Assembly: GCA_965215605.1 (NCBI GenBank) | Contig: OZ244070.1 | Coordinates: 96,001-160,000, forward strand | Reading direction: 5' to 3' | Length of the DNA: 64,000 nt | Source: an uncultured Candidatus Binatia bacterium | GTDB taxonomy: Bacteria; Desulfobacterota; Binatia; UBA9968; JAJDTQ01 | Shown: piece after piece, positions 57,136 through 64,000 of the stretch | How the letters are laid out: each line of letters begins with the position of its first letter | Position numbering within the stretch: the stretch's first letter is position 1 | The notes under the pieces: generated by a model | The model's database searches: none | What the model was told of the DNA's origin: nothing | What the model saw: the letters and a program-made list of their open reading frames with translations, nothing else | Program-made: the position numbers and the translations under genes

Positions 57136-58308
57136 CTACCAGGCCATCTCCAGGCACTCCAGCACCTGCGACGCCGAGTGGATCTTCTTGGGGTTGTTGT
57201 GGGTACTGATGTCGTCCAGCGCCGCCTCGGCCAGGGACGGCAGCGCGTCGTGAGGGATGTCCAGGTCCCGCAGCCGTAGCGGCAATCCCATCTTGACGTT
57301 CATGCCGTAGACCACCTCGGGGGCCTCGGCCGCGGCCTTGACGTCGTCGGGCTCGCGGACTCCCATGACCCGGGCCATGCGGGCCATGGCCTCGGTGGTG
57401 CCGTCCAGGTTCCAGCGCATGGCGTAGGGCAGCATGAGGGCGTGGATGTTGGCGTGGGGCACGGTGAACCGGCCGCCGATGACGTGCACGATGCCGTGGT
57501 GAATGCCGGTCCAGGCGCTGTAGACGCCCATGCTGGAGAGGGTGGCGGCCACCTGCATCTCGCCGATGGCCTCAAGGTCGTTCATGTCCGCCACCAGCCG
57601 CGGCAGGTAGGTGGTGATGGGGCCGATGGCAGCCATGCAATAGGCCTGGCTCAGAATCTGGGTCTGGGTCGAGTAGACCGCCTCCACGCAGTGGGCCAAC
57701 GCGTTCATGCCCGACGCCGCCAGGAGCCTGGCCGGGGCGGTCTGCGCCGCTTCCGGATCCAGCATGACCGTCCGGGGAGACATCTTGGGATCGGCCAGGA
57801 TCAGCTTGTGGCCCCCTTCCGCCAAGCCCGCGGAGTAGCTGTACTCGCCGCCGGAGAACGTGGTCGGGATGGCGATGTGCGGCAGCTTGGGCGCCGGCAT
57901 GGGCGGCACTTCCTTCTTGTCCGGCGGAATGAAGTGGGTGGCCAGATCCTTGAGCGGGCGGCCCTCGGCCAGGAGCGCGGCCATGCCCTTGGCGGTGTCG
58001 ATGGAGCTACCGCCGCCCACGCTCACGAACGCGTCCGCGCCGGCATCGGCGGCCTGCCTCGCCGCCACGCCGATGGAATCCGTCGGCGAATGCGGCTTTA
58101 CGGTATCGAAGACTCCCACGCAGAGACCGCCCAGGGCCGACCGCACCGCATCCAGGAGGTACGTCCTGGCGATGGACGGCGAGGTCACGACAAATACGCG
58201 GCTCGCCTCCAGGCGCCCGACCTCGTCCGCCAACTGCTTCACCACCCCGCGGCCGAAAACTATGCGCTCCACCCGTGGATTGCTGTACTCGAACGCTGAA
58301 ACCGCCAT
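57136..58308 (-). CDS. Iron-containing alcohol dehydrogenase (maleylacetate reductase-like)
   Basis: VGGGSSIDTAK, IPTT, NALAHCVEA, HHGIVH, PHA. Confidence 0.9.
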   Translation of the reverse strand: MAVSAFEYSNPRVERIVFGRGVVKQLADEVGRLEASRVFVVTSPSIARTYLLDAVRSALGGLCVGVFDTVKPHSPTDSIGVAARQAADAGADAFVSVGGGSSIDTAKGMAALLAEGRPLKDLATHFIPPDKKEVPPMPAPKLPHIAIPTTFSGGEYSYSAGLAEGGHKLILADPKMSPRTVMLDPEAAQTAPARLLAASGMNALAHCVEAVYSTQTQILSQAYCMAAIGPITTYLPRLVADMNDLEAIGEMQVAATLSSMGVYSAWTGIHHGIVHVIGGRFTVPHANIHALMLPYAMRWNLDGTTEAMARMARVMGVREPDDVKAAAEAPEVVYGMNVKMGLPLRLRDLDIPHDALPSLAEAALDDISTHNNPKKIHSASQVLECLEMAW

Positions 58309-58968
58309 CCGTCACCTCCTCGATGATGCGTGGGGTGTGAGAACCACACGCCGAAGGGCGTGTCAATCGCACTTCCTGACCGCTCAAACCATCGGGCGAT
58401 GAAAGCCGTTGTGCCACCGGTAGTTAGCCCGAGCGGCGCATGAGCGGCGGCGCCCGCCGCGCACTTGCGGAGACAGTTCTCGAACCGCCGCGCGGCTTCC
58501 AGGCGTGCACTATAGGAAGCACGAGGTAACAAATCAATCGGCGAGGACACGCGTATGGGCCGGCACACTACAGGCCTGCACTGTCGGCGACGGTGCGTGC
58601 GGCCAGCGCTGGATTCAGGCTCTGCAAGACGCTGCATCGGAAGGTCCAGGCGGCGCGGCTGCTGTGCGTCAAGCAACGGACCGCCGCCGTGGTCAGCTAC
58701 CGGGAGGTAAACAAGAGCGCGTCGATGCAGAAGCTCGGGGCGCACCAGCGCTCCGTTATTTCCAACGTCAGTCGGTCTGGTGCCTATATGCAATCCGAGC
58801 GGCATGTGTCCGACGGCACAATCCCGGCCGGGACGGGATGCTTCGATGCAACTGCCTTCAGCGAGACTCCTTGATCCACGGCCTCGGGCCATTGCATATT
58901 CTTCCAACACACATTGCCCGTCGATGCGGTCGGGAACCGGATTCATCTGGAACCAGAGGAGAGACGCG

Positions 58969-59999
58969 ATGATTCGACGATTGATGATGCCGCTTGTGCG
59001 GGCGGTAAAGACCTTGCTCACAGCAGGCGCGGACGTGAACGCCAAGGACAAAGATGGGAGTACTCCCCTTCACGAGGCGGCAGCCGAGGGCGAAGCGGGA
59101 GCGGTGAAGGCCTTGCTCACTGCTGGCGCGGACGTGAATGCCAAATACAAAGATGGGTGGACTCCCCTTCACTGGGCGGCACTCAAGGGCCAAGCGGGAG
59201 CAGTAGAGGCCTTGCTCGCTGCCGGCGCGGACGTGAATGCCAAATACAAAGATGGGTGGACTCCCCTTCACGGGGCGGCACTCAAGGGCCAAGCGGGAGC
59301 GGTGAAGGCCTTGCTCACTGCTGGCGCGGACGTGAATGCCAAATACAAAGATGGGTGGACTCCCCTTCACTGGGCGGCAGCCAAGGGCGAAGCGGGAGCG
59401 GTGAAGGCCTTGCTCACTGCTGGCACGGACCTGAACGCCAAAGACAAAAATGGACGGACTCCCCTTCACGCGGCGGCACTCAAGGGCCAAGCGGGAGCAG
59501 TAGAGGCCTTGCTCGCTGCTGGCGCGGACGTGAATGCCAAATACAAAAATGGATGGACTCCCCTTCACTGGGCGGCAGCCAAGGGCGAAGCAGGAGCGGT
59601 GAAGGCCTTGCTCACTGCTGGCACGGACCTGAACGCCAAAGACAAAATTGGATGGACTCCCCTTCACGCGGCGGCACTCAAGGGCCAAGCGGGAGCAGTA
59701 GAGGCCTTGCTCGCTGCCGGCGCGGACCTGAACGCCAAAAGCAAAAATGGGTTGACTCCCCTTCACGCGGCGGCACTCGAGGGCCAAGCGGGAGCAGTAG
59801 AGGCCTTGCTCGCTGCTGGTGCGGACCTGAACGCCAAAGACGAAAATGGGGCGACTCCCCTTCACGCGGCGGCACTCGAGGGCCAAGCGGGAACGGTGCA
59901 GGGCAACCTCGGACGTAGCATCGTGATCGACACGACAACGCCGGAGGCTTCCGAGTATCTGGAATTCCTGCGCAACCTGGATGACTCCGTGATCCAAGT
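58969..59999 (+). pseudogene. Ankyrin-repeat gene, 5' part, interrupted by IS21 (reads through into IS to 60153)
   Basis: SD AGGAGAG, MIRRLMMPLVR, nine 33-aa ankyrin repeats, then non-ankyrin segment cut at 59999. Confidence 0.85.
59002..59892 (+). repeat. Nine tandem near-identical 99-bp ankyrin-coding repeats
   Basis: Units start at 59002, 59101, 59200, 59299, 59398, 59497, 59596, 59695, 59794; ACTCCCCTTCAC invariant. Confidence 0.97.
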
Positions 60000-60181
60000 T
60001 GTCAATGGCAACCGAAAACTGCACACATTTGGCAATCGAAAACTGCACACTTTCGAGAAGAGCGTCCGTGCAGAAGTGACGCTCTGCGGTTGGTTCGGTT
60101 CATGGGTCATGGTCTGGACGGAGGGAGCGGAGCGAGCGGAGTCCAGGCCATGACGGGTTGCAGATCGGCAGGACATGGCGC

Positions 60182-60979
60182 TCACAGGACGCCTCCCTGG
60201 CGAGGCTGCTCGTCGGCTGACCGCATGAGGTTGCGGTGTTCGCGCATCCTGTAGCTGTTGCCGCGGATGTTGACGATGTGGCAGTGGTGGAGGAGCCGGT
60301 CGATGAGGGCAGCAGCCATGACCTCGTCGCCGAGGACGCTGCCCCAGTCCTCGAAGCCCTTGTTGGAGGTGAGCACGGTGGAGGCGCGTTCGTGCCTGGC
60401 GTTGATGAGCTGGAAGAAGAGCACGGCGCCGTCCTGGGTAACCGGCAGGTAGCCGATCTCGTCCACCAAGAGCAAGGCGGGATAGGTGAGGACCCGCAGC
60501 CGGCGGGAGAGCTCGCCTGCGGCCTTGGCCTCCAGCAGCGACTCGATCAGTCCGGCCAGGGTTCCGTAGTAGACGCGGCGGCCGGATTCGGCGGCGGCGA
60601 CGGCTAGGCTGATAGCCAGATGAGTCTTGCCGACCCCGGGCGGCCCGAGAAAAATGACGTTTTCGCGGCGATCCAGGAAGCCGAGTTCGTGGAGGCTCTC
60701 GATCTGCTCGCGCTTGATGCTGGGCTGGAAGGCGAAGTCGAACTGGGCCAGGGTCTTCACGGCCGGCAGCCGCGACGAGCGCATGGCGGTCTGGAGGCGG
60801 CGGTTGTTGCGCAACCCGATCTGGGCGTCCAACAACTGCTCGATAGCCTCGCTGGCGGTGGCCGCCCCGCTGTCGGCCTGGGCCAGGACGTCGTCGACGG
60901 CCTCGAGCGCGCCCGGCATCTTCAGATCCGCCAGCATCGCCCGCAGCCGGTCGCGCCGGTTGCCTGCCTCGGCCCTCAT
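60182..60979 (-). CDS. istB: IS21 helper ATPase
   Basis: FDFAFQP, GPPGVGKTHLA, VDEIGY, LTSN, DRLLHH, GNSYR; ATGA overlap with istA. Confidence 0.96.
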   Translation of the reverse strand: MRAEAGNRRDRLRAMLADLKMPGALEAVDDVLAQADSGAATASEAIEQLLDAQIGLRNNRRLQTAMRSSRLPAVKTLAQFDFAFQPSIKREQIESLHELGFLDRRENVIFLGPPGVGKTHLAISLAVAAAESGRRVYYGTLAGLIESLLEAKAAGELSRRLRVLTYPALLLVDEIGYLPVTQDGAVLFFQLINARHERASTVLTSNKGFEDWGSVLGDEVMAAALIDRLLHHCHIVNIRGNSYRMREHRNLMRSADEQPRQGGVL

Positions 60980-61998
60980 GACACCGCCTCCGCGTAGACC
61001 CTGAGCGAGCGCCGCTCGACGTCTACGGTGACGGGCAGGGGGCGCCGGGCTTGCTGTGGAAGCCTGTGCATACCAAGGCGCCGATACGGGCAACTCGCCA
61101 ACGGCAGCAGCGCCTGCTGCTCGTCGCGCTCGAAGCGGTCCACCGGGCGCTCCCTGGTGGTGCCGTGCCAGCGCCGGTTCGCGGTTCCCTCAAGCCACAA
61201 GCGCGCCTGCTCGTTCAGGTCCTCGTCGTTCAGGAACTCCCGGCCGTAGAAGAAGTTGTTGCGGATGTAGCGGATCGGCCGCTCCACCTTGCCCTTGGTT
61301 TGGGCTCGGTACGGCCGGCATGCCCGAGGCCGGAACCCCCAGTGCGCGGCGAACCGCAAGAAGTCCGCGTTCAACACCAACTCGCCCCCGCCCGCGCGGC
61401 CGTCCGACAGCACCACCGTCCGCATCTGGTCGAACAAGAGCTCCTGCGGCACCCCGCCGAAGCACTCGAAGGCGCTCTCCAGCCCTTCGATCAGCACTGC
61501 CATCGTCTGCCGCCGGTAAAACCGCAGCCACAACAGCCGGGAGTGGCTCAGAACCATCACCAAAGCATGCCGCCGCCCCCAGGGAAGCGTGAACGTCGCA
61601 AAGTCCACCTGCCCCTGCCGTCCCGCCGGCGTCTCGAACCGCACCACCGCCTCCGCCGGCTCCCTTGGCCGCACCGCCCGAACGTACTCCCTCACACGGA
61701 CGTACCCGCCCGTGTAGCCTGCCCCTCGTACCTCGTCGTACAGCCGCTTCGCCGACAACCGCGGATACTCCTCCAGTCGCGCCTCGATGATCCCCTTGTA
61801 CGGATCCAGCTTGTGACACACCGGCGGCCTCGCCCTGTATCGCGTCCCGCCTCCCGACAGATCCCGGTCCAACTGTCCTGTCTCGATCCACTCGTGGATC
61901 GTCCGGCGACTCACCCCGAACCGCCGCGACAGCTCCGTCTTCGTTACACCCCGTTCCAGATAGTGCCTAAGCAGCATCCTCGTCTCCCATCCGTGCAT
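60976..61998 (-). CDS. istA: IS21 transposase
   Basis: N-terminal HTH, RFETPAGRQGQVDF, FGGVP, FDQM, PYRAQTKGKVER. Confidence 0.96.
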   Translation of the reverse strand: MHGWETRMLLRHYLERGVTKTELSRRFGVSRRTIHEWIETGQLDRDLSGGGTRYRARPPVCHKLDPYKGIIEARLEEYPRLSAKRLYDEVRGAGYTGGYVRVREYVRAVRPREPAEAVVRFETPAGRQGQVDFATFTLPWGRRHALVMVLSHSRLLWLRFYRRQTMAVLIEGLESAFECFGGVPQELLFDQMRTVVLSDGRAGGGELVLNADFLRFAAHWGFRPRACRPYRAQTKGKVERPIRYIRNNFFYGREFLNDEDLNEQARLWLEGTANRRWHGTTRERPVDRFERDEQQALLPLASCPYRRLGMHRLPQQARRPLPVTVDVERRSLRVYAEAVS

Positions 61999-62125
61999 CT
62001 GTGCTCCGCTCCGTTCCTGTTGGTCTTGCCAACAGCCTGGACCCGAGCACTCACGCCAGCAATCAATGTGTGCAGTTTTCGATTGCCATAAATGGGAAAT
62101 TTACAGTTGCCACCAACATCCAAGT

Positions 62126-62306
62126 CAACGGACGTACCTATTTGGTGGGCTTCTACGTACCGTACGTGTTGAAGCGAGGGCCGATTCACGAATGGATTGA
62201 AGCGGAAACCGGACTAGTATTCCGTGTCGGAGACTCCTACTACGTCTGTTGCCGAGTGACGCGGGAACGGCCCGCGCCGGTTCTTCCGCTTCCCAACCCG
62301 TCCTAG
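62126..62306 (+). pseudogene. 3' continuation of the IS-interrupted ORF (non-ankyrin C-terminal segment)
   Basis: Removing IS + one DR restores the frame ...DDSVIQ-V-NGRTYLVGFY...PNPS*. Confidence 0.8.
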
Positions 62307-62314
62307 ACGCGCCG

Positions 62315-62581
62315 ACGGTGGAGGTCTTGCTCGCTGCTGGCGCGGACGTGAACGCCAAAAACAATGCTGGGGCGACTCCCCTTCACTGGGCGGCACTCAA
62401 GGGCGAAGCCGGAACGGTGAAGGTCTTGCTCGCTGCTGGCGCGACGGTCAACGAGAGAACCGGAGATAGAATAACTCCTCTGGAAGCAGCCCGAGTCGGG
62501 ATGGAAAAGACAGAGGGAAACGTCAAACATTTTCAGGAGGTGGTGCGGACACTGGAAGCACACGGGGCACGCGAAGGATGA
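62315..62581 (+). pseudogene. Orphaned original 3' end of ankyrin gene (repeat 10 + capping repeat)
   Basis: TVEVLLAAGADVNAKNNAGATPLHWAALKGEAG...VVRTLEAHGAREG*; resumes in the exact repeat register lost at 59898. Confidence 0.85.
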
Positions 62582-62871: not shown

Positions 62872-64000
62872 CTATACCCTTTTGGCATCAGGAACACGGG
62901 GTCGGGGCACGGTGGCGGGTTTGAGGGAAGGAATCGGGCACATTGCCCCGAGGTGCGTAGAAGGCGACGTCTGGTCGAGGCCGATGGAGCCGGCAATGAG
63001 TCTCCCCACCCTCTCTGCCGCCTCGGCCATATGGCGGTCGGCGAGATGGGCGTAGCCCGCGGTGGTGCGGTGCCGCCGGTGCCCGAGCAACCTGCCGACC
63101 AGGGGAAGATTCTCGCCGGACATCACGGCTTGGCTGGCGATGGTGTGCCGAAGGTCATGAAGGCGAAGCCTTCCGAGCTTCGCGGCCGCGCACGCCGCGC
63201 GCGGACGGTCCCGCAAGGGATGATAGCCCTTCCCGTGCGCGTAGGTCGGAAACAGCAGCCCATCCGGATCGCGAAGACCCCGCAGCGTCTCGATATGCGC
63301 CCGCGCGGACCGGTCTTGGAGTCGCCAAGGTTGAGCGCGTCCCGGCCGACATCGCGCCAGGGCAGATTGAGCACCTCGCTTCGGCGGCATCCGGTGAGCG
63401 CCAGCAGCCGGATCGCGGCGACGGCGACGGCCTCGGGCCATCGGGGCTCGCCGGCGTCGAGCGCGCGACCGAGGCGCGCCAGTTCGTCCGCGTCGAGAAA
63501 CCGGGCGATGTTGTTCCGCGGGTTCTTCCTGATGCCGACACAAGGGTTGCTGTCGCGTTGGCGCAAACCCCACTCTTCGGCGCGGAACATCATCGAGCGC
63601 AGTATCTCGAAGGCGCGGTTGGCCGCACCGGGCCGGTCCTTGCTGGCTGCGTCGAACCACGCGGCCACATCCTCGGGACCGATGCGGTCGAGCGGTATCC
63701 TGCCGAAGGCAGGTAGGATGCGGGACTTGATATAGTTGCGCACGGTCTTGCGTCCTGAGGGCTTCCAGTGCGGACCGCAGCGACGCAGGTACTCGTCCGA
63801 GAACTGCGCAAGGTCAAGGTCTCTTTCTCCCTGCGGTTGTCGCCCGCGCGAATGCGCCCAAGCATGTCACGGGTGCGACGGCAGGCCTCGGCGATCTCGA
63901 TCTCGGCATGCCGAGCGATGACGATGCGGCGGCTCCGTCCCTCGATGCGCGCCTGCACGATCCAGACCTTCCGGCCTGATGGATGGATGCGAAGCCCGGA
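62872..64000 (-). pseudogene. Frameshifted tyrosine recombinase/integrase (arm-binding type); 5' end outside window
   Basis: GLRIHPSGRKVW, LLALTGCRRSE, LHDLRHT, LLGH..TTAGYAH spread over at least three frames. Confidence 0.88.

Follow-up and report, generated by a model that had tools for sequence, protein, structure and literature searches.

What process leaves a bacterial gene with near-identical repeats that vary mostly on one binding face? The question is raised by a stretch of 64,000 nucleotides from an uncultured Candidatus Binatia bacterium (assembly GCA_965215605.1, contig OZ244070.1, positions 96,001 to 160,000; hereafter the window, to which coordinates refer unless another contig name precedes them), where nine ankyrin repeats lie in tandem on the plus strand at 59002..59892. 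A preliminary description saw in them a recombination-driven, diversifying receptor under positive selection and added that adenine-directed mutagenesis would leave the same codon pattern. We consider it likely that the array forms the repeat part of a gene from a lineage-specific ankyrin family, with a selected surface, recombination within the gene and, in this copy, a break caused by foreign DNA. The genes of this family start alike, have consensus-like 33-residue repeats in varying number and share a C-terminal cap. Unequal recombination or slippage within each gene would duplicate, delete and recombine blocks of one and two units, and would thereby keep the framework DNA nearly uniform while yielding mosaic units. 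Ordinary point mutations would be kept preferentially at beta-turn and helix-1 residues of the concave binding face (diversifying selection). The window copy, which belongs to a subfamily lacking the hydrophobic N-terminal signal, has been split between units 9 and 10, first by the 3' part of a small open reading frame (ORF) and later by an active insertion sequence (IS) of the IS21 family.

The repeat array and its fold

Tandem Repeats Finder places the array at 59002-59897, with a period of 99, 9.1 copies, 88% matches and 0% indels. The nine complete 99-bp units encode one 33-residue ankyrin repeat each and are in frame with an ORF at 58780..60153, which comprises 394 amino acids when counted from the family start codon at 58969; this ATG is taken as the start because the paralogues show theirs there. 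Compared in pairs, the nine units are on average 87.7% identical in DNA and 79.4% in protein. A 12-mer, ACTCCCCTTCAC, has exactly 10 copies in the 64 kb, nine in the array and one in a tenth unit further downstream (unit 10), and its confinement to these ten units argues against a chance pattern. Among 80 related loci, six ANK arrays passed a strict unit filter with mean identities of 0.67-0.81, compared with 0.877 for the window array, and this number is too small for a ranking.

Five codons of the unit stand out. Codon 16 reads GAC in four units, TAC in four and AGC in one; codon 18 is GAT (four units), AAT (four) or ATT (one); codon 20 is TGG in five units and AGT, CGG, TTG and GCG in one each; and codon 25 is GCG in four, TGG in three and GAG and GGG in one each. 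At each of these four codons three to five states occur; at codon 28 there are two, which lie two bases apart (CTC in six units, GCC in three). All codon variants listed in the preliminary description are thus found in the per-codon table, and its remark that the third base is nearly fixed in these codons holds with a single exception, the AGT in codon 20. The extension of the pattern to unit 10 needs a qualification: AAC (codon 16) and GCT (codon 18) are real, but they occur only in that unit, which lies outside 59002-59892 and 2,422 bp past unit 9. To call the framework almost invariant was somewhat overstated, since the nine units differ at 28 of their 99 sites, namely at 13 first, 5 second and 10 third codon positions; the ten third-position sites are synonymous, and eight framework codons (3, 4, 7, 10, 12, 17, 29 and 31) show replacements between two states. 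The patchwork nature of unit 4 is evident from its three base differences to unit 2, which fall in codons 28 and 31, where unit 4 is identical to unit 6. The observation of near-identical ankyrin units that vary mostly on the binding face is therefore real and was accurately described.

The ankyrin fold is indicated by profile, period and model alike. In 58969-60150, Pfam finds PF00023 (E=9e-77, eight stretches) and PF12796 (E=1e-71), and the best relatives with solved structures are ankyrin-1/2 and designed ankyrin repeat proteins (DARPins), with PDB sequence matches at E values down to 6e-123. Throughout the nine units, the TPL motif recurs every 33 residues. An AlphaFold2 model computed from the single sequence reaches a mean predicted local distance difference test (pLDDT) score of 90.7 and shows, according to DSSP, two helices per 33 residues. 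Foldseek assigns it a probability of 1.00 and template-modelling (TM) scores, normalized to the query, of 0.85 to 8cs9_A, 0.83 to 7tw3_G (ankyrin-1) and 0.76 to the DARPin 6mok_A. The array thus combines an Ank profile, a 33-residue period with the TPLH motif and a superposable solenoid.

HMMER alignment with the DARPin chains sets the register: codons 15, 16, 17, 18, 20, 25, 28 and 29 correspond to repeat positions 33, 1, 2, 3, 5, 10, 13 and 14, respectively. In the model, helix 1 comprises codons 22-29 and the preceding loop codons 8-21, so that helix 1 holds codons 25 and 28, and the beta-turn region holds codons 16, 18 and 20. The earlier assignment of the hypervariable codons to the beta-turn and helix 1 is borne out by both the DARPin alignment and the model. 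The internal repeats of the aligned DARPin chains differ from one another at positions 2, 3, 5, 13, 14 and 33, in agreement with the positions that DARPin design varies. In the ANK-N5C library, as described by its authors, positions 2, 3, 5, 10 and 13 were randomised; these lie in beta-turn 1 and helix 1 and have a high natural entropy, exceeding 1.6 among 28 natural repeats (PMC4308713). A similar set emerges from 25 regular units of five paralogues in the same genome (B-F), which have their top entropies at codons 20, 28, 29, 18, 25 and 16 (2.0-2.7 bits) and values of 0-0.8 bits at most framework codons.

Recombination and probable selection among the units

The mosaic structure of the units is consistent with intragenic recombination, as the preliminary description had proposed. 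In a four-gamete test with 23 two-state sites, all four combinations occur in 57 of 253 pairs, the minimum number of recombination events (Rmin) is 6, and neighbouring sites are less often incompatible than after shuffling of the site order (permutation p=0.003). The array also retains a two-unit duplication, in which 59258-59519 and 59456-59717, two units apart, differ at 10 of 262 nt. Within the arrays A, D and E of the gene family, the longest identical tracts measure 89-136 nt, compared with 23-81 nt between loci. Homogenisation thus operates inside the individual genes, as is usual for tandem repeats subject to unequal crossing-over or slippage. Gene conversion from other loci or from a silent cassette was also considered and left no sign of recent exchange, because the longest tracts that the window array shares with other paralogues are only 31-45 nt, besides a 77-nt N-terminal tract common to paralogue G.

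For an estimate of selection, 66 distinct 99-nt units from this genome and its relatives were placed on a FastTree tree, and changes were counted per codon by parsimony in a simplified form of single-likelihood ancestor counting. At the five codons 16, 18, 20, 25 and 28, 162.2 non-synonymous and 13.8 synonymous changes were counted, corresponding to a ratio of non-synonymous to synonymous rates (dN/dS) of 2.53 (binomial p=2e-4), whereas the other codons had 194.4 and 133.6 changes and a dN/dS of 0.54 (Fisher p=2e-16 for the five codons versus the rest). The window units, from which the five codons had been picked out, do not drive this result: in the 56 units that remain without them, the counts are 138.2 and 10.8 for the five codons (dN/dS 2.69, binomial p=4e-4) and 173.8 and 123.2 for the others (dN/dS 0.52). 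The protein sequence thus changes faster on the binding face than in the framework.

Whether this excess reflects positive selection is less certain, and several points weigh against such a reading. At the positions set beforehand from designed libraries (codons 15, 17, 18, 20, 25, 28 and 29), dN/dS is 1.20 with all 66 units (p=0.2) and 1.09 without the window units (p=0.37), values that indicate faster change than in the framework and leave positive selection unproven. No single codon passes a correction for 33 tests, the best being codon 28 (p=0.002). The dN/dS values come from a home-made parsimony count, and a tree of recombining 99-nt units is poorly resolved. In the ten units of the window taken by themselves, the ratio of non-synonymous to synonymous polymorphism (pN/pS) is 0.87 overall.

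One alternative is that the surface merely drifts while the buried framework is conserved, so that relaxed constraint, homoplasy and tree error together would mimic selection. The pre-set positions, whose dN/dS does not differ from 1, and the failure of single codons to withstand multiple-test correction suit this view, as does the fact that variability at these positions is general in ankyrin repeats and, according to the ANK-N5C study, formed the basis of library design (PMC4308713). The non-synonymous excess at the five codons in the independent units is harder to reconcile with it, and so are units 5 and 7, the most recently duplicated ones, which differ at two bases only, both of them replacements and located in codons 18 and 20. 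We therefore judge drift of the surface rather unlikely as the whole explanation. The claim of positive selection in the preliminary description keeps its basis in the five codons (2.69 versus 0.52) and loses ground at the pre-set positions and in the single-codon tests; positive selection at the binding-face codons is likely but not proven.

The gene family and the interrupted copy

The array does not stand alone, and the preliminary description, which had suggested a search for other arrays, overlooked the paralogy as well as the short N-terminus of the window gene and the interruption between units 9 and 10. The genome (4.06 Mb in 8 contigs, 66% G+C, 97% complete; the array is part of a 3.96-Mb contig) contains seven paralogues according to blastn, namely the window gene and six further loci that share its start context, kind of repeat and C-terminal cap. 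Their architecture follows the order start, signal, repeats and cap. TP[LM] motifs number 9 in the window gene (plus 2 beyond the break) and 13, 8, 13, 5, 6 and 2 at the other loci. With paralogue F as query, relatives turned up in 19 of 24 further genomes within the genus and, for two neighbouring families in the order, in 1 of 5 and 2 of 11 genomes. The nearest named records are metagenome-assembled genomes (MAGs) with the labels Candidatus Binatia (identities of 77% and 70%), Thermodesulfobacteriota (76%) and Gemmatimonadetes (66%). Among paralogues and orthologues, the repeat count of a gene ranges from 1 to at least 15.

The family resemblance begins upstream of the gene. A region at 58732..58968 (plus strand, by blastn) is common to the paralogues and may be regarded as the promoter or leader region of the family: 58732-59000 matches C1:3647420-3647689 with 96% identity over 270 nt, a match that extends into the first codons of the gene, and 135-182 nt of the region match five further paralogue loci at 75-80% identity. 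The family start codon (ATGATTCGACGA...) and a shortened N-terminus, MIRRLMMPLVR, follow at 58969..59001 (plus strand), as seen from paralogue comparison and Kyte-Doolittle hydropathy. The five paralogues B-F begin with MIRRLVIVLVLACLWSPTALMAAP, which comprises two arginines and a 21-residue uncharged stretch and is, by inspection and hydropathy alone, signal-peptide-like. In the window copy and the short paralogue G, 24 codons for the hydrophobic core and the N-cap are absent and the N-terminus reads MIRRLMMPLVRAVKTLL. Consistently, the maximum 11-residue Kyte-Doolittle mean is 3.25 in paralogue F versus 1.24 in the window copy, where no uncharged run exceeds 7 residues (21 in paralogue F). 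The short N-terminus recurs in three other species of the genus (G021, G001 and G019), in one of them with 15 or more intact repeats, in another with three and in the third in a frameshifted gene. In the last case (L099, G019:C4:46913-50268, minus strand), the orthologue of the window subfamily is frameshifted after about three repeats, and a 110-amino-acid frame is followed by one of 541 amino acids that holds the remaining repeats.

Unit 9 and unit 10 of the window gene are separated by an interruption of 2,422 bp. It starts with 107 bp (59893..59999, plus strand) that continue the reading frame after unit 9, are unique in the genome according to blastn and end with TCCAAGT, the left target duplication of the IS element. 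The element itself (60000..62118, minus strand) is 2,119 bp long and carries features of the IS21 family: istA (60979-61998, minus strand; Pfam rve), istB (60185-61093, minus strand; Pfam IstB_IS21, E=2.2e-79), terminal inverted repeats (60006-60053 and 62065-62112; 48 nt, 81% complementary) and the 7-bp direct repeat TCCAAGT on both sides. Its four copies in the genome are 100% identical, and the insertion is thus recent. At 62119..62306 (plus strand) stand the right target duplication and then the other 61 codons of the small foreign ORF with its stop codon (62304-62306). Without the IS and one copy of the duplication, the interruption amounts to 296 bp and represents the 3' part of this ORF. 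Unit 10 (62315-62413, plus strand; Pfam Ank) is split from the array and lies in another frame; the hexamer ACGGTG opens both this unit and the interruption after unit 9. It is followed by the C-terminal capping repeat and tail of the family (62414..62581, plus strand; ...TPLEAARVGMEKTEGNVKHFQEVVRTLEAHGAREG; stop codon 62579-62581), and Pfam detects PF00023 (E=1.9e-11) in 62315-62578. The tail shares 87% nucleotide identity with that of paralogue G and 81-83% with those of B, C, E and F.

The right half of the interrupting ORF is 44% identical (E=1e-11) to a 95-amino-acid ORF elsewhere in the genome (match at G000:C1:2413223-2413393), and BLASTP found no alignment of the left 35 codons with this paralogue. 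A Pfam search of the two halves and the 74 codons upstream of the start revealed no family at E values up to 10, and the interrupting ORF, with the query used, gave no match in 27 other genomes of the genus. The 95-amino-acid ORF (L107 1387-1674, G000:C1:2413109-2413396) adjoins an IS3-type transposase and an AAA_14/DUF4143 ATPase; it has no Pfam family above the cut-off, DUF1353 (E=0.06) being below it. Just upstream of ankyrin paralogue C, at G000:C1:774265-774447, 186 nt remain of an end of this IS21 element (84% identity), so that the IS has visited a second family member as well. Downstream of the window gene, open frames in 62872-64000 (minus strand) resemble pieces of a tyrosine recombinase/integrase in at least two frames, with the motifs HDLRHT and GHRRHRTTAGYAH recognised by eye. 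Together with the IS21 element, these recombinase-like pieces suggest that the ankyrin gene is situated at the margin of mobile DNA.

What the break means for the gene depends on whether the nine-repeat ORF still works. As a truncated or chimeric ankyrin protein lacking an export signal, its product would act in the cytoplasm or reach the outside by a different route. The frame stays open between 58969 and 60153, the upstream region shares 96% identity with its counterpart in the short, intact paralogue G, the same N-terminus has been retained in three other species, and the model folds confidently without an N-cap. However, unit 10 and the C-terminal cap have been severed, and the frame instead passes through the fragment of the foreign ORF and then 51 codons of the IS end, inside which it stops at 60153. 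The recent date of the IS insertion, the frameshift in the G019 member of the subfamily and the abundance of open frames in this DNA of 66% G+C also speak against a working gene, which we consider improbable. Most likely, to judge from its structure, the window copy is a decaying or at best truncated gene.

This preferred reading, a broken member of a largely exported family, has to accommodate some opposing facts. The nine-repeat ORF is still free of stop codons and frameshifts, and one of the three other species that conserve the short N-terminus has at least 15 intact repeats. Since this N-terminus has been kept in three species, the signal-less subfamily as such may be functional. Open frames are cheap here, as a further two run through the array. 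Furthermore, hydropathy is the one basis for export. On this basis, and because most members carry the signal-peptide-like N-terminus, most of the family are probably exported binders of the type called 'eukaryote-like proteins'; that they bind host proteins once exported is likewise inferred. The term 'receptor' used in the preliminary description is without support, as Pfam finds ANK families alone in the window ORF and no membrane, signalling or NACHT/NB-ARC domain.

The unit order could also be an artefact of assembling a repeat. Four sequencing runs (X1, X5, X9 and X10), available as short contigs, cover mainly the IS21 element and the repeated upstream element described below. Their contigs leave the unit order unconfirmed, as they break inside the array, where the bins in 59408-59695 are almost uncovered and the joints have sides of less than 31 letters or unidentified letters between them. 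Against an artefact, the array sits in a 3.96-Mb contig and the same architecture with other unit numbers recurs at the six further loci and in other genomes. Moreover, a 167-letter X1 contig equals 59863-60029 without a difference and so spans two junctions, albeit with only 30 letters on either side, fewer than the bridging rule of the tool requires. An assembly error thus appears very unlikely. Among the listed runs, six labelled as sponge metagenomes hold small shares, and contigs of one of them, X10, match parts of the array at 90-95% likeness, which may be taken as a weak hint of a sponge habitat.

A further conserved sequence precedes the ankyrin gene. This element of approximately 210 nt (58327-58545, candidate strand minus) has 11 near-identical copies in 10 genomes of the genus, of which seven adjoin ankyrin genes and four lie elsewhere. 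Across 12 genomes of the genus, a 25-nt core (58423-58447; query positions 115-139) occurs alone at 26 listed places, with 96% identity. On the minus strand, the element terminates in a GC hairpin (ACGCC-N4-GGCGT) with a T-run behind it, and in two of the three copies of this genome it is located about 40-60 nt before a start codon. The gene after it encodes an iron-dependent alcohol dehydrogenase here and, by eye, a UbiD-like protein at C1:1020601. In each of the four runs, the contig depth over 58400-58543 exceeds that of adjacent bins by a factor of 15 to more than 100. An Rfam search of 58250-59050 gave a chance-level match alone (asR3, 22.5 bits versus a gathering score of 46), and 2 of 45 predicted pairs show compensatory change. 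The element may be a small RNA or leader that is not yet described, or the end of a mobile element.

Known parallels and biological meaning

A diversity-generating retroelement (DGR) or another adenine-directed mutator that writes the variable codons from an AAN-rich template is the weakest of the alternatives, and we regard it as almost certainly wrong. DGRs resemble the array superficially, in that variation falls on codon positions 1-2 with position 3 near-fixed, as AAN templates would also give. The adenine signature itself is lacking: a template A or T carries at least 90% of the mismatches in none of 3,184 ordered unit pairs of the genome and none of 4,272 of the genus set; the share of mismatches at template A or T reaches a maximum of 0.75, with a median at template A of 0.25-0.26. 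At ten of 31 variable sites, A is absent from all ten units, and ten synonymous third-position sites vary too. The fixed third bases need no special mutator, because the observed replacements require changes of the first or second base and third-base changes appear synonymously elsewhere. No template repeat came to light either, as blastn of the genome found copies of the array only inside the ANK paralogues. The sole RVT_1 match in this 97%-complete genome covers profile positions 1-78 of 205, ends before the catalytic region and thus provides no intact reverse transcriptase. Finally, the variable region here is not a C-terminal lectin- or Ig-type domain like those that DGRs diversify. The RVT_1 fragment (ORF 1435..3234 in L001, G000:C1:2720129-2723362) continues in the same frame into a long hydrophobic, transporter-like sequence and, by reading, is probably a remnant of the front part of a group II intron reverse transcriptase.

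Closer parallels exist among ankyrin proteins. Fungal NOD-like receptors (NLRs) carry ANK, TPR or WD repeats of high internal conservation, and the account of Dyrka et al. (2014, PMC4986451) describes near-identical repeats within a gene, differences in repeat number, reshuffling by recombination (concerted evolution) and, for the ANK repeats, about five positively selected positions on the concave face formed by the inner helix and the beta-hairpin. Repeat-number variation and shuffling are likewise found in the present family, in the range from 1 to at least 15 repeats and in the four-gamete and permutation results. In contrast to the fungal proteins, the host is a bacterium and ANK stands alone without a NACHT/NB-ARC or effector domain. 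Furthermore, the units share 79.4% amino acid identity, below the 85% or more across 100 amino acids or longer that defines internal conservation in that work (PMC4986451).

In Wolbachia, ANK genes vary in repeat number between strains and include chimeric repeats, intragenic recombination and IS-disrupted copies, as reported by Siozios et al. (2013, PMC3563639). The two systems share the organisation as a bacterial multigene family, the chimeric repeats, which in Wolbachia derive from distant repeats, and the copies disrupted by IS elements and frameshifts (PMC3563639). They differ in phylum, in the far more uniform and consensus-like repeats found here, and in the signal-peptide-like N-terminus of most members and the family-specific C-terminal cap. 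Concerted evolution and surface diversification of ANK repeats are thus already known from fungal NLRs and Wolbachia, and the family member is new; a limited literature search found no description of this ankyrin family.

A third parallel concerns sponge symbionts, in which ANK proteins are recognised as 'eukaryote-like proteins'; the source that reports this also covers Binatia MAGs from Ircinia sponges (PMC9531527). Single ANK genes of this kind are reported to enable free-living cyanobacteria to evade phagocytosis by sponges (PMC13747020). The likeness lies in the ANK-only composition of proteins that, according to these two sources, are enriched in symbiont genomes (PMC9531527, PMC13747020), and the nearest named relatives of the present family include Binatia-labelled MAGs. 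An N-terminal secretion signal, as would be expected of exported symbiont ANK proteins, is absent from the window copy and present in B-F as far as hydropathy indicates.

Designed libraries provide the fourth comparison. Like DARPins and ANK-N5C (PMC8683736, PMC4308713, as far as these sources describe the design), the family has a 33-residue consensus framework; its hypervariable codons 18, 20, 25, 28 and 29 equal the library positions 3, 5, 10, 13 and 14, and the predicted model of the window protein superposes on DARPin structures. Unlike in DARPins, where position 1 is fixed, codon 16 is hypervariable here. Conversely, positions 2 and 33 (codons 17 and 15), which are randomised in the designed libraries, are near-fixed here (K30/35 and K35/35), and helix 2 is rich in Ala and Gly (AGAVKALLAAG).

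The locus reveals no new mutagenic mechanism, and the window copy itself is probably decaying. The family is, nevertheless, a clean bacterial example of repeat-protein diversification, with a uniform scaffold, a variable binding face and a changing number of repeats. A bolder reading, to which we attach only tentative belief, is that the genus keeps exported consensus-type ankyrin binders with faces diversified by selection and scaffolds made uniform by recombination. These would be a bacterial counterpart of the fungal NLRs directed at host or prey proteins, and the signal-less subfamily would exit by another route or act inside the cell. The biology of the Binatia is almost uncharted, and the named relatives come in part from sponge microbiomes. 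With its seven paralogues and many orthologues, the family offers a natural set of binders; their targets could show how these bacteria interact with a host.

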